A stretch of 63,661 bases of DNA, the filler included, from Circinaria calcarea (taxonomy: Eukaryota): NCBI GenBank assembly GCA_051942165.1. It is 7 parts of 7 records of this genome, joined end to end, with 100 filler letters (N's around TTAATTAATTAA, not from the genome) between each part and the next. Parts side by side here need not be neighbours in the genome. Positions count along the whole stretch, not along the records: positions 18,253 to 27,272 come from JAVECS010001003.1; 6 more parts are not named here. The stretch is one strand, 5' to 3'. Under the pieces are notes generated by a model. The model was not told where the DNA came from, made no database searches, and saw nothing but the letters and a program-made list of their open reading frames with translations. Below are positions 17,258 through 27,272 of this stretch, one piece after another. Numbering within the stretch: position 1 is the first letter of the stretch; each line of letters begins with the position of its first letter. A program made the translations under genes and the position numbers.

Positions 17258-18152
17258 CTAGGACTTCACAAAGCAAGTTTCCTTGAGCGCATCCGCCTGT
17301 ATAGCCCATACTGGATGGCCTAGTTCCATCAAACGAGGTCCAAACTCTTCGATTAACCTAGACACTTCTTGCTCACTCTCACACTCTTCCTCAACAATAT
17401 AACTTTCCTGGCTCTGAAAGGTCGCATCGTACCAAGCCCGTTTCCATTCTTGAACCGCCTTCACAGCTTCCGGGTGCTGAGGTTGTACTTGCTTTGCTAC
17501 CAAGTAAAACGACGATCTCATTCTATGAGCTCTGAGCGGCTTGAAGAGTTGAACTTTAGAGAACTTGTCAAAGGCATGGATAACGCTGACAGAGTACCAA
17601 CTGTCGACCTTGTGTAAAAGCATGATAAGAGTGCCACCGGCCTTGATACGTTGTAATGCAAGGATTAGTTGCCCAATGGTTAGCCGAGACGCTTCTTTGG
17701 TCTCCCTGTACTCGTGTCGTGTATGTACGTCCGGTCGGAGTACTTGACCATCACAAAGAACAAGATCGTAAACATTACCAACATAAGGGCGATTGATGGT
17801 GAATCTACTAGCCTCCGGATGACTGTCAGGAATCCCTCGGACTCCGAATTCCGCAGCGAGCATGTTAATGTCGGCAAAGAGGATTCGGACTCTACTGTCT
17901 TTCAACAGCACTTTGTGACCGCCGGACTCGTGGGGGAGCGTGACAGCGTCAATTCTGGCAAAGGGATGGCGCTTTAAGACAGAGTGACTATACCCTCCAG
18001 GAGCCATGCAGAGGTCCAAGACCTTTGGCTTCCAAACACCGAGCTCGTAAGCACCTGTAGCTCGGCTCATGTCGCTTCCAATGTTTGACATCAAAGAGAA
18101 GAAATGCTGACATGCTTTTTCGTCTGCCTTGTCTGCTCGCTGGCGCTGTTGC
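17258..18152 (-). CDS. Fungal FtsJ/RrmJ-like SAM-dependent methyltransferase (5' end lost at contig edge)
   Basis: VLDLCMAPGGY SAM motif, DLVLCDG, LIMLLHK, LFKP..H..RSSFYLVAK. The frame stays open up to the gap. Confidence 0.85.
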
Positions 18153-18252
18153 NNNNNNNNNNNNNNNNNNNNNNNNNNNNNNNNNNNNNNNNNNNNTTAA
18201 TTAATTAANNNNNNNNNNNNNNNNNNNNNNNNNNNNNNNNNNNNNNNNNNNN

Positions 18253-18391
18253 TGCTTATAGACCGTGTTCAATAGACTCCATACTATTGAGCCTAGGGCA
18301 ACAGTTCAACTACACCCTATGTAACCGTGCTATTACCAATCGAGACTTAACATATTCCTCATTAGGCCTCAAGGATTGCAGCGCCCTTACA
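18253..18391 (+). mobile_element. 3' part of an LTR (same family as 44884-45149), truncated by contig start
   Basis: Shares TATTGAGCCTAGGGyAACAGTTCAACTACACCCTATGTAACCGTGCTAT and GGATTGCAGCrCCCTTACA with 45004-45149. Similarity ends at TTACA. Confidence 0.75.
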
Positions 18392-18520
18392 ACCTCCCCT
18401 GCCTAGGACCACCTCTATCGTGCCTGGGACCACCTCCCTGCCTGGGACCACCTCCATCGTTCCTAGCACCATCTCCCGTCGTGCCTGGAACCACCTCCAT
18501 TGTTCCTGTGACCATCTCCC
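18392..18520. repeat. Degenerate 18-22 bp tandem repeat, about six units
   Basis: ACCACCTCTATCGTGCCTGGG / ACCACCTCCCTGCCTGGG / ACCACCTCCATCGTTCCTAGC / ACCATCTCCCGTCGTGCCTGGA etc. Confidence 0.75.
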
Positions 18521-18714
18521 GCCTCAGTCACGAGACGAGATTAAGGCCTTAGCTTACGCTATAGCTACTAGTACTCACCTTAATATTAGCGTAGTTAAAC
18601 AACTTTTGGGGCACTCCGTATAAATAAGCTATATCCAAAAGAAGTTAATTAGATATAATTATTAAACGCTTCATAAACTTTGAAAAAATTAGTTATAGCT
18701 CCGTGTCAGGGTCA

Positions 18715-18855
18715 TAGGGGTTGCAAGAATTCAGTTTATCTCCCTTATCAGCTAAGATTTTGCCTAAACGAATCAACAGCTTAGTTTTTACAATATATTA
18801 ATACACGCCTAAACCTCGGCCGATAGGGGCGGGCACTGAATTCTTGCACCCGCTG
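18715..18855. mobile_element. MITE-like element with ~48-bp imperfect terminal inverted repeats
   Basis: Left arm TAGGGGTTGCAAGAATTCAGT...; the reverse complement of the right arm is CAGCGGGTGCAAGAATTCAGT..., with TGCAAGAATTCAGT matching perfectly. The terminus resembles Tc1/mariner (impala/mimp-type CAGTGGG..GCAA) ends. Confidence 0.6.
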
Positions 18856-18990
18856 TGGGGTCATTGATACTAGCGGCTCCTAGCACTAGACTAACAACAC
18901 TTCGTGCCCGCCCAGCATCTTAACGAGCTTGCGCTTATAGTGGCCTCGGCACGGCTAGTAACTACCAGGCATTATCAGATCAGATCTCCC

Positions 18991-19963
18991 TCAATCCTTC
19001 CACTGCCTTCTTCCTGCATACCACTTCACCAAATACACCAATCCGACTAACACTGGCACTTCTATCAGTGGACCAACTGTCGTTGCTAACGCTTGATCAC
19101 TATCCGCCCCAAACGTAGCGACAGCAACCGCAATCGCCAATTCAAAATTATTGCTAGCCGCTGTGAAACTTTGCGTCGCTTGTCGCGACGGTCGAGTACG
19201 ACACCGCAATACCGCTTCCGGACCGACTGATGATTCGAACGAAGAGGATGGCGAGCGGCGCATACAATACTATTTGAAGTACGGAATTGACGGCCACCAG
19301 GATAGCGCAATACTCCTGGTCGCCTCCAGCAAGACCAGTCCAGATGAGGACCTGACTGATTCAGTATAAGCAAGAGACAGAAGAGAATTGCTTACCATAG
19401 CAATACAACGAGCCAGCCCAACAAAGATTAATCCTTCCCTAAGACCAGGCTCATCTGGGAGAAAAGCCCATGCTAGACCAAGTTGTTGGTCAGTCTCTGC
19501 TTCTCCGATGCGGCATCAGACTCACCATAAGGAGTGGAGCGACGAGCTAGTTTATAATAACACTAAAACCGATCTGAACCCAAATTTCTCGTTCTCTAAA
19601 CACGTGGTGGAGTGTTTCAAATTTCACTTTGCAGAGAATCGGGTACATCATGACAAGAAGGCCGATGGCTGCAATGATTAGCGACATCGTGAGACCGGTG
19701 CACGGTAGCATACCAATAGGGACTGAGACGTTGACGAATTTGCCTATCTGTAATGCTGGCCCAATACTTTCAATAAAGTTCCCAAGCAATATGCCGATGA
19801 CTATGGCAAGCAAAATCCATACAATAAGAAGCCGGTCCAACCATCCAAGACTCTTATATACGGAATGTTTTGTATTGTCTTGCTGCTCGTCCTGTTTCTC
19901 GGAGTAGACGCTTGGAGGCTGACTTTGTGGCATGGTTTGAGATTCTAACGGCGATGACTTCAT
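18991..19963 (-). pseudogene. ACR3: Arsenite efflux permease ACR3, disrupted (premature stop plus internal deletion/frameshift)
   Basis: ACR3 motifs [58 protein letters not shown] replaces the expected Trp of N(W)LVAP at 19547-19549. YSTVATS is joined out of frame directly to [12 protein letters not shown] near 19177. Confidence 0.88.
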
Positions 19964-20409
19964 TTTTAACTAACTGTGGTACTCAGGTCTTCTTTCAGAA
20001 AGGTCGATGGTGGGTGAAAATGGAATGTCTGGGAGAGAAATATTATACAAACACAAGGGCGACCTGGTGAGACGATTATATACTCTATAGATTAGTTCGA
20101 ATAGTGGATTGATGGCGTGGAGACATCTCGAAATGATGGTGGAATTTTGATCTGACCAATCATACCATTTGCGTGACATGGCCAAGACTTTTCCCTCTCG
20201 TGCTAACTCCCGAAGTTTGACGTCCTGCTTTCGCCCTGATTCTAAACCTTGCCACGAAGTTATCCCGAAAAACCCCAAATGATCTAAAATAGTTCAATAT
20301 CTCTTTTCCCGTCGATTTGATCTGGGAACATCCAGTGCCATAATCTGTGCTTCAGGACGTATCCCAATTAGTAGCCATTGAGCTCCCCCGTGAAGCTAGG
20401 GTCAAAACC
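19964..20409. promoter_or_regulatory. Shared divergent promoter region of ACR3 and ACR2-like genes
   Basis: Head-to-head starts ~450 bp apart, the same arrangement as yeast ACR2/ACR3. No specific operator identified. Confidence 0.45.
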
Positions 20410-20990
20410 ATGCCGACTGAGGACAGGCCATGGCATGCAGCGTATCCGAAGCCGAAGAATACTTCTCCAGACTCCATTTCTCGCTCAGATTTGTTGGAGA
20501 GACTCAATCGTGGTGAACAGCCCGGTCGGGATTTCCTATTGATTGACCTCCGAAGGAATGACCATGAGGTGAGATATACCACCACTACGTTGATTGTTAT
20601 ATTCTGCACATAACCACTTGATCGTGTCGGCTAATACGCGGGGAAAGGGAGGGACTATTCGGGGCTCGCTAAACCTGCCAACTCAAAGCCTTTACCACAG
20701 CCTCCCAATACTGTACAATCTCTGTGATGCCGGCAGGATCGATATGATCATTTGGTACTGCAGTACGCACCCTTTCACTTGGAAGTATAGTCGGAGTAAT
20801 GTTTGCAGGTTCTTCTAAGGGACGTGGTACAAGAGCTGCCGGCTGGTTTGATGATATAATCAAGGAACAAGGCCACCACAGCATGAAAAGCGTCACCCTG
20901 CTAGAAGGTGTTTCTGGATGGGCCGCTGCAGGAAAAGAATATTCTGACTTGAAGGATGGCTATGAGAAAGAGGTATGGGAGAAGAAGTGA
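20410..20990 (+). CDS. ACR2: Arsenate reductase, Acr2/Cdc25-rhodanese type (2 introns)
   Basis: Exons ~20410-20568, 20648-20762 and 20809-20990: PWHAAYP..LIDLRRNDHE / GGTIRGSLNLP..IWYC / SSSKGRGTRAAGWF. The C-X5-R active loop is intact after splicing. Confidence 0.85.
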
Positions 20991-21098
20991 CTGAATGTAC
21001 AAAGCCTCACTAGGACAAAGCAAGTCTTATGCAAAGACGGCCAGTCTGGCAAAGCTGTAGATGATTTGCTTCAATAATCTCCTTCCAGCGTTTTCGAG

Positions 21099-22517
21099 TC
21101 AACTCGTGGAATGGTTTCTTGCTGTATCTATACGAGATAGACGCTTCCTGTATCTTCGTAGTTCCCAGAGACATAAACTTGCTAGAATATATGATATGCC
21201 GGAAAAGATTTGAGGGTAGAGATATTCCCGTTTCATGTCAGGCCTTCGCAATTGGAGAGCAATCGTTTCCGAGACTAGATTGGTCACCACTTGATCAAGA
21301 TGCATTGTTGAAAGTTACTCACAAGCGCTCGGGAGAACCGTCGTTAGCCAGCCCAGGGAGAGTAAGGAAGGCAACTCTTTGAGACCTGCCACTTCTACAC
21401 AAAGCGGTCCAATGGTCTGCTGATAGTCAGTACGATCACCCACCAGAACAGGACCACTCACAACCCAAAAGACACCAAGAATAGCGCCATTGATGATAGC
21501 AAAGGCGACAGTGACGGCAAATGACTGAAAAGGTAGCCAGAGGATAAAACAGCACAATCCACAGCCCACCGTGAGGAGACCAGCAATCTCAATCCGTCCA
21601 TAACGATCACTTATGAATCCAATGACTGGCCGCCCCAGGGCTGTCCCGAGATTCAAGTATGCAGTGATTTGGACTGACTGGTCTCTCGACAAGCCAATGG
21701 AGATAGCATAATCTGACATGGAGAACAATAATATAATGTAGCCAAACATACCGACGAATGTCCAGGTAAGTAATAGAAAAACATCATATCGGCGCAATAG
21801 CACAACATCAAAAGGGATCGACGCTGGCTGCACAACGTGATTTCGGCTCCTGATGAAGATGGTCGCAAGTGTATTGGCTGTAACAGCCATTATGCCCACC
21901 AACCGCAACGACCATGCCAGTCCAACATTTTCAATCACTGCACCAGTGCTCAGGGAGAATATGATGCCGCCAATACCTGAACCAGCTGCACTGATTCCGT
22001 TGGCAAGACTTCTTCTGGTAGAAAACCATTGAGACAGGATTGCGATACTTGGAACGTAGAGGAGTCCTACCCCAAGACCCACCAAAACACCTTGAGAGAG
22101 GTAGAGCTGCCATATTCGTCGTGAAAATGATGCAGAAACGTAAGCAATACCCAATACCAAAATTCCCAAAGACATTGGCAGATGAATTTCATAGCGGCGA
22201 ACCAGTGCGGTAACTACAGGCGCCGCAAGCATAGCGATGGCGAAGTTTAGTCCTCCAATGAAGGCAAAGTCGATTGGCCGTGCTTCAGTAAAAGTTTCGT
22301 TTGAAAGGTAGTGGGCAAGATAAATGCCATAAGACTGTTTTCATTAGTCTTCTGTTCTACCAGTAAGTGTATGTCACATATGAAGTACCGCGACCACACC
22401 CCAAGTGAAGCCGTTGATAGTGAAGCAAGCTGCCACGCAGACCCAGCCATATCCACCCTCAGGCTCACTTGGCCTATTCTGTAGAGTATGCTCTAAAGTT
22501 TGCATTCTCCTCACCAT
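21099..22517 (-). CDS. MFS transporter, monocarboxylate-permease (MCH/MCT)-like (about 3 introns; start approximate)
   Basis: PEGGYGWVCV N-terminal motif, SQWFSTRRSLANGISAAGSGIGG, GRPVIGFISDRYGR, many transmembrane segments. No internal stops once spliced. Confidence 0.85.
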
Positions 22518-24178
22518 CTAGCCGTGATTTTCATGTTGGTTCTTGCAGAATGCTGACACCAACTGTCCCCTCGTGGTGGGAGGGCATTTGTCATTGAGCA
22601 GTCCTGCCTTCTATTACGGTAGGAGGCATAAGTATTGTTAGTGTGGGCTAGTAACATGTACGTAGTAGTTCTGCGTACAAGGGCCGCGCGTCCTTCGGGG
22701 CGCTAGCCAGTCTTGACCGCTCAGTAATGATTGTGATTGGCTTGGATCCAGGAGCCAGATATCTATCTGACTAGTACTTCTCAAGTAAGGACCGTCCTGT
22801 TAAGGTGATGTCAGATACAAAGTTTCTAGCTTGGAGCTAACAATACTTATGCCTGGTACCGTAGTATTACGTACAGATGTGGCTCGATCGGAAGCTGCAT
22901 ATTCGGAACAAAATTTGCGATGCCGTTTGCGAAACTAATCCATCTTGAGATAAGTGGAGCCAATCATTCTATGGCAGTGACTAAGTGGTTTACGTAGTAG
23001 TTCGAAGCGGCTCACATGTAGCAGCGACCGCCTGGTCCAGCAAAGACCTTTAATAGCAAAACATCTTTCAATCACTACCATAGCGCCGCACCTTCAAAAT
23101 GGCATAAGCTTGGTAAGACACGCGGGTTCCACTGGCGATCTCAACAATGTGTCAGCTATGCGGGCAACAGAAAAGCCAATGCGAGATCCCGAGTATATAT
23201 ATCGTACTCTGGCAATTCCTGAGGAATCTGAAGTACCCTAGATTCGGCAACGTTATAGGCCGTTTCTATTGGATAACAATGTCCAATCCATAGGCTGGAT
23301 AAGCCGCTTGGAGCTCGCGACAGTTTCGAAAATGGCTGAAGAAAGACTTCCAAAGGACTGGGGAAAGACTTCGAGTGCTTGTGCTATATAGAAGCTTACA
23401 CAAACGGTAAGACAATTTTTTTTCGCTGTTCGTGTACTGATGATTCAGTTCATATTTCAAACTGCTTTCGTACGAAATTTCGCACATTATTTTCAGACTT
23501 GGGTGCGATGTCCGAATAAACCTATAAATACTTATTATTGCGATCGTCGATTGGGATATGTGGCACCAGCTTACTGGTAAGATGAATCTTATAGTAATAA
23601 TACCGCACGGGAAGCCGTTGATGAAGAACTCAGCGACAATATATATCCATTTATATCTATCGTCGAGAGGACTAGACCTAGACAATGGCTGCATAGGCTT
23701 CTCCATGGTACCCATCAAAGAGGGAATTAAACAGGTGTGATACACATTTCAATGGCGTTAAGAGTGAAAACGTTTGAATACGAAAAATTACAAGGGCAAG
23801 GTACCTTATGCAACACTACTGCACTTGTCTGTCTTAAGAGATCCTTTATCCCTACAAGAGCCTTCGACCTCCCAATCATGCAAGGAGAATATATCATCAG
23901 GCGTCCAATCAAATAGTGAGTGTGACATGAAGAGCACCTAATAAACTTTCCCATTTCCCCTTGGATTCACATTCATTGACCACTCACGAAGATGGGGAGT
24001 GTCACTCTTCTGGACCCCACCTGCGCCACAATGTAGTGACTTGTGACAAAGCCGTCAAAACCTCAACAATAAATCACCATAAACTGAAGGCCGTCCTCCA
24101 AATTAATTAAGATATATACTTAACTAGCGACAATCCACTAATCAACTTCCATTTCACCATTTCCTAACATCACTCAGC

Positions 24179-25233
24179 ATGTCTACTCTATCAACCGAAA
24201 CAGCTTATGCAACGATTGAAAGTGCTTACAGCTTCAGAGCCACAAATCAGATCTCCAATGGCCTCCGAACCCGCATCACAGCCGCTCTAGGCTATGATCC
24301 CGTCGAAGCCGCCGCGGCGCCCGAAGCGGCGAATATCGGCGAGGGTTGTGGTAATCCATTGCTGATCGCTAATCTCTCTGAGGTATTGCCTCGTGCACGC
24401 TTTCCAATCTATACAGTCGTAGCCGCTAAATCTAGACGATGCTAGGGCCAATCAGTGCTCGATTTGGGTAGCGGCGGTGGCTTCGACTGTTTCCTAGCCG
24501 CGAACAAGGTCGGCCTAAACGGCCGAGTCATCGGCATCGACATGACCGAAGTACGTTTCTCCGCTACTGAAGCCCTCCCAAAGCTGATGACCTTACGTTG
24601 CAGAAAATGGTTGAACTAGCGCGGCGTAACGCCGCTAACGGCGGTTACTCCAATGTCACCTTCCTCAACTCGCGCATTTCGCAACTGCCCGTCGACGACG
24701 CCTCCATTGACTGCGTGCTAAGCAATTGCGTGTTGAACCTTGTCCCGGCCGCCGAGAAGCCGCGTGTCTTTGCAGAGATCCACCGCGTCCTGAAGCCCGG
24801 CGGCTATGTCGCTGTGTCAGACTTCCTAGCATACAAGCCGCTGCCGCAGGAGATGATCGATGACCCCCGGCTGCAGGCCGGCTGCGTCTCCGGTGCCGTC
24901 GAGACAGCCGTCATGCGGAAATACTTGCAGCAGGCCGGTTTTTCAGATATCCTGCTCATGGATTCAAAGAAGGATTTAGGACTGTACAAGGACGGGGGGG
25001 CCGCGAAGAGCGTGACGCCGTGCTGCGCCGGCGGTGCATGTGAGCCGGAGGACCAGGTCACGGCCTCGGGGAGGAAGGAGCTAGATTACGATATCAATGA
25101 GTGGATTGGGAGCTTCCTGATCTATGCGTTGAAAGGGAAGGAGGACGGGACAACGGCCACGGTGGAAACAGCAGCCGTACCGATTGAGAATTCCAAACAA
25201 TCATGCTGCGGTTGCAAACCGGGAGCATGTTGA
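24179..25233 (+). CDS. arsM: Arsenite S-adenosylmethionine methyltransferase (2 introns)
   Basis: GEGCGNP / [18 protein letters not shown] / [23 protein letters not shown]. The conserved ArsM cysteines are present, plus CCAGGAC and a terminal CCGCKPGAC. Confidence 0.92.
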
Positions 25234-25307
25234 AATATGAGCAACGGTTCTCCGGTAATTATGTGGGATTGGAGCATACAGTTGTCTAAGCTAAACATTC
25301 TCTCCAC

Positions 25308-27025
25308 CTAGCTTCTCTTGGTCCTACCGACTTCATAGTCCGCCCATTTGACTCGTTGAACGCACCGACTCCAGTAGAAGCCGAACTGGCTACCCGGCCA
25401 GACCAATGTATTGCGCCCAGACTGCTTGTTGATAAAATAGGTGTCAACGTCCGTGCTGTATACGAAATCCTGCATCCAGCCTTGGAGCTCTTCATTGTAG
25501 GCATCTTCTGCCGCAGCCTTAACCATTATTGTCGACGATTGGGGGCTCGCCCAGCTGAGAAGGGGTTTCAGAATCCGAAGGATATATACCACCGAGCATT
25601 CTATGCCATGAAGGGTAGAGTTGCCATTCGGTAACGTGTTGGGCCCCGTCAGAACGAAGAAGTTCGGGAACCCAGATACCGCAACCCTATGAATCGTGTT
25701 AAAAGGGTGACACGTAGCGGATAAAGGCGATGGACTCAAACATACCCCATGTATGCTCTTGCGCCTCCTAATTTGTTCCATTGCTGGCGCAAGTCTCGCC
25801 CGTCCTTCCCTAGGATTCGCATTGGCGTCAGGAGCTCCTGAGTCTTGAAACCGTTTGCAAGAATGATAGTGTCAACATCGTGGTGTCCGTCCTGGGTGTC
25901 GATGATGCTGTGCCCGTCGTTTTCTATGGCTCTGATGCCGTCGCCCTTGATAAGCTCGAAATTGTCGAGATTGGTTGCCTGCAAGTAACCATGATCCATG
26001 ACAGGTCGCTTCGCGCCGAACGGGTATTTGGGGATCAGAATATCATGATATTTTTTCGCTGAGGTACTGGTCATATAGTCCTTTATTGAATCTTCGAGAT
26101 TTTTGCGCTGAGCAGCGCCAGAACTAGTTTTCTTAAATGCGGGTAGGCCCATGTCCATTTGGAAAGCCTTCCAAAGGCGGTATGCCCTAGCAGCGAGGGG
26201 AACATTGCGGAGTACCCTATCACCATCAGAAGAGAGGCAACCAAGATACCAAGGGAGTCACAAACCATTTAAATACGTCGATGTGCTGAGAGTTCACCTT
26301 TGCAGCGACCCATTGCTCGCTACGAACAATCTGCACAAGCTTCTTGACACGTCCCTCGTTAAGTAACCAAGGGACAACTTGGTTTGCTGAGCAGCCGTTT
26401 CCGAGCACCAGCACGTTCTTGCCTTGCCAATCAGCATTTCGCCAGTTTGAAGTATGCATCACGTCTCCTTGAAAGGCATTCAATATTGGGACATCCTCAC
26501 GGCCTTTCGGAACGTTGAGGACACCAACAGCGGTGATCAACACTCTGCTTTCCCGCGCGTACTCTTTCCCTGTGGTCAGGTCGCGGAATTGCACAGTCCA
26601 GGTAGAGCTCTGGTCCGACCAGCTTGCATTCAGGCACTCCTGGTTGAGCTTAATGTATGTTTCAAGCTGGAAATGCTCCACGACATTGTCAATGTAGTCA
26701 AGAATTTCGGGTTGCTTTGCGAATGTCTCCGTCCAGTTCGGATTCAGATAAAAGGAGTAGGAATAGTACTACCATCCGGTTACGTTAACAGCGAGGAAAA
26801 GTGCCGCTTCCCCTCAAAAATGACAGTGTTCGATGGGATGGGTCCTACCTGGGAATCAACATCGCAGCTCAGATTAGGATAGATGTTCTGCGCCCACGTC
26901 CCGCCTACGTGAGCGAGCTTCTCAAAAACCGCAAAGGTAACGTTGGGGAATTGTCGCTTCAACTGCACGCCCATTGCAATACCCGCCAAGCCCGACCCAA
27001 CGATAATGACATCTTCCGTCGCCAT
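25308..27025 (-). CDS. Flavin-dependent monooxygenase, type I Baeyer-Villiger-like (about 3 introns)
   Basis: GSGLAG Rossmann motif, GGTWAQNIYP..CD, fingerprint FQGDVMHTSNW, GNGCSA, ANGF, FPNFFVLTGPN. Convergent with arsM, stops ~75 bp apart. Confidence 0.88.
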
Positions 27026-27142
27026 CGCGTCGACGTTCAAGGTTACGCCAATGTAAATCGATTTGCGCAAAGACCTGAAAAATGGGATAAGTAGGACTTC
27101 AAATTGCTGGCGGAGTCGCTGTAAAAACAGACAGAGAATGAA

Positions 27143-27272
27143 AACCTATTTGGAAACCTGTTTGGTAACCTGTTTGGTAACCTGTTTGGTAACCTGTTTG
27201 GTAACCTGTTTGGTAACCTGTTTGGTAACCTGTTTGGTAACCTGTTTGGTAACCTGTTTGGTAACCTGTTTG
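27143..27272. repeat. 12-bp tandem array (AACCTGTTTGGT)n, at least 10 copies, running into the gap
   Basis: Directly visible. The first unit is degenerate (AACCTATTTGGA) and the rest are perfect. Confidence 0.95.

Follow-up and report, generated by a model that had tools for sequence, protein, structure and literature searches.

The stretch of DNA analysed here, from the lichen fungus Circinaria calcarea (assembly GCA_051942165.1; 63,661 nucleotides, hereafter the window), contains an arsenic locus on one contig, its third (JAVECS010001003.1). The locus comprises the remnant of an ACR3 arsenite permease gene and four intact genes: an ACR2-like gene of the Cdc25/rhodanese type, a transporter gene of the major facilitator superfamily (MFS), the As(III) methyltransferase gene arsM, and a gene for a class B flavoprotein monooxygenase resembling type-I Baeyer-Villiger monooxygenases (BVMOs). 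A preliminary description had listed these five features, with one of them disrupted and four intact, on a single contig; direct reading and spliced gene models bear it out, coordinates included, and all five fall within the third contig (Table 1). It had also proposed that the BVMO and the MFS transporter might be unrecognised fungal arsenic genes, to be checked by their co-occurrence with ars genes elsewhere. Both do recur beside such genes in other fungi, as judged from accession numbers, locus tags and fused annotations: the BVMO gene next to arsM, and the MFS gene next to the ACR2-like gene.

Table 1. Features of the arsenic contig and of the window that contains it (positions count along the window)
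Feature	Position	Strand	Structure or basis
Third contig of window, holding the whole arsenic locus	18253..27272		9,020 bp; joined at either end to an unrelated contig by an artificial linker
ACR3 (arsenite efflux permease) pseudogene	18991..19963	-	TIGR00832 profile pieces and direct reading
Deletion and frameshift junction in ACR3	~19178..19188	-	flanking pieces in different frames abut here
In-frame TAG in ACR3	19547..19549	-	coding sequence goes on in frame after the TAG up to a GT donor
ACR3 remnant to ACR2-like intergenic region	19964..20409		divergent; 446 bp
ACR2-like Cdc25/rhodanese gene	20410..20990	+	exons 20410-20568, 20648-20762, 20809-20990; 151 aa
MCT/MCH-like MFS transporter gene	21099..22505	-	exons 22389-22505, 21462-22334, 21323-21416, 21099-21274; 419 aa
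MFS to arsM intergenic region	22506..24178		divergent genes; 1.67 kb; no recognisable gene
arsM, As(III) S-adenosylmethionine (SAM) methyltransferase gene	24179..25233	+	exons 24179-24382, 24446-24550, 24604-25233; 312 aa; three-cysteine (group IV) type
Type-I BVMO-like class B flavoprotein monooxygenase gene	25308..27025	-	exons 26849-27025, 26266-26768, 25746-26216, 25308-25686; 509 aa
12-bp tandem repeat	27143..27272		10.8 copies, 98% matches; reaches the right end of the contig and lies upstream of the BVMO gene, 117 bp from its start codon
Inter-contig linkers	9031-9130, 18153-18252, 27273-27372, 36389-36488, 45482-45581, 54572-54671		

The BVMO gene is convergent with arsM, leaving 74 bp between the two stop codons. 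Gene neighbourhoods in other fungi were judged from the locus tags, accession numbers and contig sizes of database proteins. Of 226 candidates scored in a search with the BVMO protein, 11 reached E ≤ 1e-10. Eight of the 11 are named homologues from fungi, with 48-78% identity to exon 2, and the other three stand at 32-35% identity. The corresponding ArsM search returned 660 proteins, 120 of them listed. For four of the eight fungal homologues ArsM is the product of the adjoining gene by consecutive accession or locus tag: Psora testacea (KAL9126730/31), Collybiopsis luxurians (KIK68790/91), Daldinia vernicosa (KAI0848040/41) and Lasiodiplodia mahajangana (KAJ8128130/29). These carriers span the Lecanoromycetes, the Xylariales, one Dothideomycete and one basidiomycete, so that with the window the pair is found in five genomes and two phyla, and the adjacency persists across classes and phyla whose proteins are ~50-57% identical.

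Trees of the BVMO and of ArsM agree in broad outline, and for this reason the two genes appear, from their sequences, to have been inherited or transferred as a unit. Circinaria groups with Psora in both trees; in both, Lasiodiplodia also falls among the Xylariales and the basidiomycete among ascomycetes, each of these placements being weakly supported. The BVMO-linked ArsMs are spread across the Dikarya ArsM clade. The preliminary description had left room for the BVMO and the transporter as unrelated passengers; an adjoining arsM in four of eight named homologues, together with the agreement of the trees, argues that the BVMO is not a random one.

Two of the BVMO homologues deserve separate comment. 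That of Lasiodiplodia mahajangana (P0004) is 82-85% identical to those of Xylaria and Nemania, and the ArsM of the same species (P0061) likewise groups with the Xylariales, which suggests either that the pair was transferred horizontally as one or that the assembly is mislabelled. The Pseudogymnoascus sp. model (P0008) bears an N-terminal extension of ~290 amino acids (aa) whose basic region is bZIP-like; a neighbouring gene has probably been merged into the model.

A scan of bacterial sequences with the BVMO alignment found at least 591 stretches matching its pattern and 583 relatives, of which the best 80 were kept. They are 31-36% identical to the BVMO, in hosts such as Zhongshania, Marinobacter, Acinetobacter and Paraburkholderia. 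The surroundings of these 80 loci, 8 kb to either side or less where a contig ended sooner, were searched by tblastn (E ≤ 1e-5) with ArsM (one fungal and three bacterial queries), MFS and rhodanese-MFS proteins. While the control search with the BVMO itself succeeded at 80 of 80 loci, arsM, this MFS gene or this rhodanese gene was found within 8 kb at none of them, the best arsM match having E = 0.038. On these 80 loci a bacterial origin or bacterial ars linkage of the BVMO was therefore rejected, and the arsM-BVMO pairing looks like a fungal assembly, not an imported operon.

The second pairing involves the MFS gene, which is convergent with the ACR2-like gene, their stop codons lying 108 bp apart. 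An MFS search gave 766 proteins at E ≤ 1e-30, most at ~60% identity and hundreds of them fungal; 120 were listed. One of the 120, from Penicillium sp. (P0150), is annotated as rhodanese plus MFS, and P. viridicatum P0252 belongs to the same 90% cluster; the annotation implies that in Penicillium the two are neighbours read from one strand, an orientation that differs from the convergent one of the window. In Seirophora lacunosa the MFS and ACR2-like proteins have locus tags ending in 007225 and 007227, two apart, and an MFS homologue (ENA record) and the ACR2-like homologue of this species are each reported on a 6,549-bp contig. The locus-tag comparison covered 16 ACR2-like representatives, 15 of them named, and Seirophora lacunosa is the only one that is also among the named MFS matches.

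Approached from the ACR2 side, a library search with the rhodanese part returned 803 relatives, 150 of them listed, and 26 long representatives of these were scanned. MFS_1 was detected in none of the 26. Four consist of a methyltransferase and a rhodanese, with arsenite methyltransferase as the best NCBIfam match; such fusions link the ACR2-like clade with arsenic on evidence from outside this contig. The four, P0312, P0325 and P0381 (Pisolithus, Pluteus, Astraeus) and P0362, are ~340-aa basidiomycete ArsM-like methyltransferase/ACR2-like rhodanese fusions; the ArsM cysteine motifs are lost in the first three, and two are kept in P0362. A fifth long representative, Recurvomyces mirabilis P0271, has an ACR2-like rhodanese and the C-terminal part of a phosphate:H+ symporter in one model, which suggests that they are neighbouring genes. 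Arsenate usually enters cells through phosphate transporters.

The remnant of ACR3 consists of four pieces, matching positions 1-80, 93-120, 118-178 and 274-326 of the 327 in TIGR00832. Positions 179-273 (~95) have no DNA at all in the remnant. No full-length match in one frame was obtained, the best piece scoring 79.6 bits against a cut-off of 282.8. The gene is dead through at least two independent lesions, a deletion with frameshift and an in-frame stop codon, and is a pseudogene of the ACR3 family. No solved Acr3 structure was found in which the position of the TAG could be placed.

The spliced ArsM model is identical at 312 of 312 residues to an NCBI protein that is named for a metagenome-assembled genome of Circinaria calcarea and recorded on a contig of 9,020 bp, the length of the third contig here. 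Pfam methyltransferase domains are present in it, and its best family by a wide margin is arsenite methyltransferase (NF008823, a model made for bacteria), with 249.5 bits and E = 4e-74, narrowly under the curated cut-off of 263 bits. Three As(III)-binding cysteine motifs, equivalent to C72, C174 and C224 of CmArsM, align with those of solved ArsMs and of fungal and planctomycete relatives, and these cysteines are conserved throughout the clade. The fourth, N-terminal cysteine (equivalent to CmArsM C44, and aligned against Chlamydomonas ArsM) is absent. The protein thus belongs to the fungal-planctomycete group IV of ArsM described by Chen et al. (PMC5552862). At 57%, the G+C content of the arsM coding sequence exceeds that of the contig (48%) and of the spacers on either side (44%); the gene is interrupted by two spliceosomal-type introns. 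Such a composition is in keeping with a bacterial ancestry, as has been proposed for arsM of fungi, despite the introns.

The 509-aa monooxygenase is colinear with its eight fungal homologues (49-75% identity), and a full-length fungal homologue matches phenylacetone, steroid and cyclohexanone monooxygenases (PAMO, STMO, CHMO) with E from 1e-50 to 1e-44. Both GxGxxG dinucleotide-binding motifs are present, as is F-x-G-x3-H-x3-W; the next residue is Arg, in place of the Pro or Asp of the type-I definition, FxGxxxHxxxW[P/D] alongside two GxGxxG motifs. The catalytic Arg lies in a K-R-P stretch of exon 3; the alignment sets it opposite the K-R of steroid monooxygenase, and it is invariant among the homologues aligned. 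Judged by these motifs, the enzyme appears capable of catalysis. A further resemblance of exon 2 is to the heteroatom oxidase trimethylamine monooxygenase (E = 2e-13). Membership in the ArsO family was considered and rejected: against NF040505 (346 positions, cut-off 425 bits) the homologues P0004 and P0002 score 54.8 and 53.7 bits, in the N-terminal half only, and exons of the window gene score 28 and 23 bits.

The ACR2-like protein contains the C-x5-R active-site loop, and single exons of its gene have no Pfam match. Its structural relatives were sought through the rhodanese half of Penicillium P0150, a homologue with 52% identity to the window protein; among solved structures, that half comes closest to yeast YGR203W and to an Arabidopsis Cdc25-like phosphatase, and its Atlas neighbours are Rhodanese clusters. 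Fold and loop indicate an Acr2/Cdc25-like protein, which is predicted to be an arsenate reductase from its context, namely the adjacent ACR3 remnant and the ArsM-rhodanese fusions of other fungi.

The transporter matches Pfam MFS_1 (E = 1e-25), and its closest solved relatives are the monocarboxylate transporters (MCTs) MCT1, MCT2 and MCT8 and the bacterial SfMCT. Family cut-offs are far from reached by an 88%-identical homologue, P0132 (85 versus 586 bits for TIGR00892, and 95 versus 320 bits for the SfMCT model NF049980). By these comparisons it is MCT-like, not a demonstrated MCT. The best match is an Endocarpon pusillum protein, with 88% identity over 418 aa. Endocarpon belongs to the Eurotiomycetes, while the adjoining arsM (84%) and BVMO gene (75%) are closest to those of Psora, in the Lecanoromycetes; an identity of 88% is unusually high across classes and may point to transfer among lichen fungi or to a contig that was binned wrongly.

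All ten introns in the spliced models of the four intact genes are of the GT...AG type and 45-80 nt long. The divergent region between the ACR3 remnant and the ACR2-like gene has no Yap8-type or Yap1-type site, and there is none anywhere else on the 9,020-bp contig. Over the whole window the counts of the two motifs, 20 against 21.8 expected and 9 against 6.85 expected, are at chance level.

The absence of arsH from the contig, also asserted in the preliminary description, is upheld by Pfam scans of the main open reading frames (ORFs) and of 20 intergenic or end ORFs, among which no ArsH-like ORF (NADPH-dependent FMN reductase fold) was found. The 20 ORFs from spacers and contig ends gave no Pfam match above noise that would point to a hidden gene or an arsH remnant. 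Since the true surroundings of the locus end at 18253 and 27272, this absence holds for 9 kb only. The ORF scans likewise revealed no bZIP gene and no further biosynthetic gene on the contig. None of the 17 ORFs from the spacer between the MFS gene and arsM rose above noise against Pfam; the 149-aa, ATG-started ORF there (23269-23715, minus strand) is without a Pfam match, its Atlas neighbours are unconvincing (best score 0.87, with recognition under the stated threshold), and it is probably not a gene.

The source genome is an incomplete metagenome-assembled genome (MAG), and the locus is known from one contig. The window joins seven separate contigs in descending order of size, from 9,030 to 8,990 bp, by spacers each composed of N44, a 12-base linker with stops in all frames and a further N44. 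Anything that seems to span a linker is an artefact, for instance the FtsJ-like ORF at 17258-18196. The other six contigs carry unrelated, housekeeping genes, including those for Snf7, a DEAH helicase, FtsJ, Vps35, a DNA polymerase subunit, a P450 and a TPR protein, and so provide no context for the arsenic locus. The 12-bp tandem repeat at the right end of the arsenic contig probably caused the assembly to break at that point; close to the left end (18392-18522) there is a degenerate 21/43-bp repeat.

In yeast, YAP8, ACR2 and ACR3 form a cluster in which ACR2 and ACR3 are divergent and share a short intergenic region. The divergent ACR2/ACR3 pair is common to the contig and to the Saccharomyces cerevisiae ACR/ARR cluster (cited in PMC7826186 and PMC12256816), but on the contig ACR3 is dead, no bZIP gene is present, the shared region is without a Yap8- or Yap1-type site, and there are three extra genes. 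Fungal ars clusters have been described with arsH, arsC, arsB/ACR3, a Pho80-like cyclin gene and arsM (PMC12256816; 10.1101/2020.03.06.981548; PMC3289889 for the A. fumigatus gene table). The clusters of Eurotiales, namely those of the Starship Hephaestus of Paecilomyces variotii and the duplicated clusters of A. fumigatus, resemble the contig in combining an arsenate reductase gene, ACR3 and a group-IV arsM, and also in having variable accessory genes and apparent horizontal movement. They differ from it in that the contig is without arsH, its ACR3 is a pseudogene, a BVMO gene stands by arsM and an MCT-like MFS gene by the reductase gene. The parts of the published descriptions at hand name no BVMO or MFS for Eurotiales ars clusters, and the word 'monooxygenase' has no occurrence in the main texts of PMC12256816 and 10.1101/2020.03.06.981548, the accessory-gene supplements lying outside this check. 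A literature search combining BVMO or flavin monooxygenase, arsenic methyltransferase and fungi returned nothing relevant. The conserved arsM-BVMO and ACR2-MFS pairings thus appear to be undescribed in the literature searched.

Among bacterial systems, ArsV and ArsH oxidise the trivalent methylarsenical MAs(III) to pentavalent MAs(V), and arsO is a putative flavin-binding monooxygenase gene of ars operons (10.1101/2021.08.12.456183). ArsH, ArsV and ArsO are NAD(P)H- and flavin-dependent and ars-linked, and the oxidation carried out by ArsV and ArsH is the role proposed below for the BVMO. The BVMO differs in family from ArsO and ArsH, being a 509-aa protein of the type-I BVMO kind, and the FMN reductase fold of ArsH has no counterpart on the contig. 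With the type-I BVMOs (phenylacetone, steroid and cyclohexanone monooxygenases) the window clade has in common a match at E ~1e-50, the Rossmann motifs, the F-x-G-x3-H-x3-W part of the fingerprint and the catalytic Arg; it departs from them in the Arg, not Pro/Asp, after the fingerprint Trp of the window enzyme and in having arsM as its genomic partner. The transporter has the MFS fold in common with bacterial ArsK and ArsJ, with SLC16 and with yeast Mch, and its gene neighbours an arsenate-reductase-like one, much as those of ArsK and ArsJ are linked to ars genes. It lies far under the curated cut-offs of the MCT families.

We regard it as about an even bet (a probability of roughly 0.5) that the contig is a compact fungal arsenic island in which two separable two-gene cassettes stand side by side, with the BVMO and the MFS transporter both handling arsenic. 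One cassette would be the classical divergent ACR3/ACR2 pair together with the MCT-like transporter gene, its ACR3 having decayed and its ACR2-like and MFS genes remaining intact; the other would consist of arsM and the gene for the type-I BVMO-like, NADPH- and FAD-dependent monooxygenase. The ACR2-like protein would reduce As(V) to As(III), and ArsM would methylate As(III), MAs(III) or both to trivalent methylarsenicals. These As(III) species are soft nucleophiles, which the flavin-peroxide of the BVMO may oxidise to the far less toxic MAs(V), dimethylated DMAs(V) and trimethylarsine oxide (TMAsO). The BVMO would in that case stand in for ArsH and ArsV of bacteria and for the product of arsH, which is annotated for this job in Eurotiales ars clusters. 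Finally, the transporter might export an arsenical, either As(III) or a methylated oxyanion, as Acr3 or ArsK does, and such export would make the loss of ACR3 tolerable.

By analogy with the known clusters, the absence of arsH from the contig and the presence of a BVMO gene beside arsM fit a non-orthologous replacement. The simplest synthesis may be that Eurotiales pair arsM with arsH and these fungi pair it with the BVMO gene, and that yeast pairs ACR2 with ACR3 and some fungi pair it with the MFS gene. On this sequence evidence the BVMO and the transporter are good candidates for new fungal arsenic genes.

Several observations count against this two-cassette reading. The fourth cysteine is missing not from this ArsM alone but from 24 of 24 group-IV sequences aligned, fungal and bacterial, and so is a trait of the clade. 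A three-cysteine ArsM of A. fumigatus, in the hands of Chen et al. in 2017, reportedly methylated MAs(III) and not As(III); such a substrate preference would weaken a direct chain from reduction to methylation. BVMOs normally act on ketones, the present one does not belong to ArsO, and its 80 best bacterial relatives have no arsM, and neither this MFS nor this rhodanese gene, within 8 kb. In the alignment to MCT2 the transporter has Thr at the column that we take to be the proton-coupling Asp of mammalian MCTs. The MFS family is very large and generic, and no Psora or Lasiodiplodia MFS is among the 120 matches listed, which implies that the transporter is not part of the arsM-BVMO cassette. 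The earlier suggestion that the transporter is linked to ars genes therefore stands in part: the gene recurs beside the ACR2-like gene, in the Penicillium fusions and by the Seirophora tags, and not beside arsM. The size of the BVMO clade and the share of it linked to arsM rest on 226 scored candidates, and the four homologues without a verified arsM neighbour come from Xylaria cubensis, Nemania abortiva, Tricladium varicosporioides and Pseudogymnoascus sp., species with no ArsM among the 120 listed. Conserved adjacency could in part reflect a few joint transfers, not selection for shared function. What has been observed are the gene models, the lesions of ACR3, the families of the proteins and the repeated occurrence of the two pairings; every substrate and every direction of transport is inferred. 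Lastly, an oxidase is not strictly required, because trivalent methylarsenicals also oxidise in air without an enzyme (PMC5552862).

Other explanations draw on the same observations. The arsM-BVMO pair might be a biosynthetic or non-arsenic module that acts on Se, Te or S, or that makes a specific oxidised organoarsenical (TMAsO, or a precursor of arsenobetaine or arsenocholine) for purposes other than detoxification. Tailoring steps in fungal clusters are typically carried out by enzymes of the BVMO type, the pair resembles a mobile fungal cluster in that its trees depart from the species tree, and the likeness of exon 2 to trimethylamine monooxygenase would suit such a role, as would the bZIP-like extension of the Pseudogymnoascus BVMO, of a kind seen next to cluster regulators. 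We nevertheless think this unlikely: the three As(III)-binding cysteines of ArsM are kept throughout its clade, the pair sits 1.7 kb from the ACR2/ACR3/MFS group and hence in an arsenic context, no other biosynthetic gene is on the contig, and bZIP genes are frequent accessories of fungal arsenic clusters too (PMC12256816). That the BVMO and MFS genes are passengers without an arsenic role, kept in place by shared descent of a small genomic block or by chance, is in our judgement distinctly unlikely. The generic nature of the huge MFS family, the 0 of 80 bacterial BVMO relatives with ars context, the verification of an arsM neighbour for only four of eight homologues and the shortness of a contig taken from a MAG can all be cited for it. 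Yet gene order would not be expected to persist between classes and phyla at the protein identities seen here, the BVMO and ArsM gene trees are congruent, the MFS/ACR2-like pairing recurs independently in Penicillium (in another orientation) and in Seirophora, and both genes have stayed intact while the adjoining ACR3 decayed.

It is also doubtful, to a similar degree, that the lineage switched adaptively from Acr3 efflux to methylation, oxidation and export and lost ACR3 in consequence. An ACR3 with two or more independent lesions amid four intact neighbours speaks for such a switch, but plain redundancy, for example with the MFS transporter or a second ACR3, is simpler. A further ACR3 copy may exist, as the evidence comes from one 9-kb contig of an incomplete MAG and the six other contigs, with their unrelated housekeeping genes, say nothing on this point; moreover, the arsM-BVMO pair is found in other fungi, whatever the state of their ACR3 may be. 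A bolder extension, to which we give very little credence, is that arsM and the BVMO gene form a mobile fungal cassette making defined oxidised methylarsenicals such as trimethylarsine oxide, which would feed the arsenobetaine- and arsenocholine-type compounds of lichens and mushrooms, while the ACR2-MFS cassette would supply As(III) and move the products. Were it true, it would give a first genetic handle on the arsenobetaine/arsenocholine pathway in fungi.

Bacterial arsO and arsV owe their description to their position within ars operons and gene islands (10.1101/2021.08.12.456183), and the same neighbourhood logic points to the BVMO gene by arsM and to the MCT-like transporter gene by the ACR2-like reductase gene. 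If the BVMO of the two-cassette reading oxidises trivalent methylarsenicals, it would represent a new eukaryotic family of arsenic-resistance enzymes and a non-orthologous replacement of ArsH; if arsenicals are what the transporter exports, fungi would have in it an equivalent of Acr3 or ArsK. Either role would bear on the speciation and volatilisation of arsenic by fungi and lichens.

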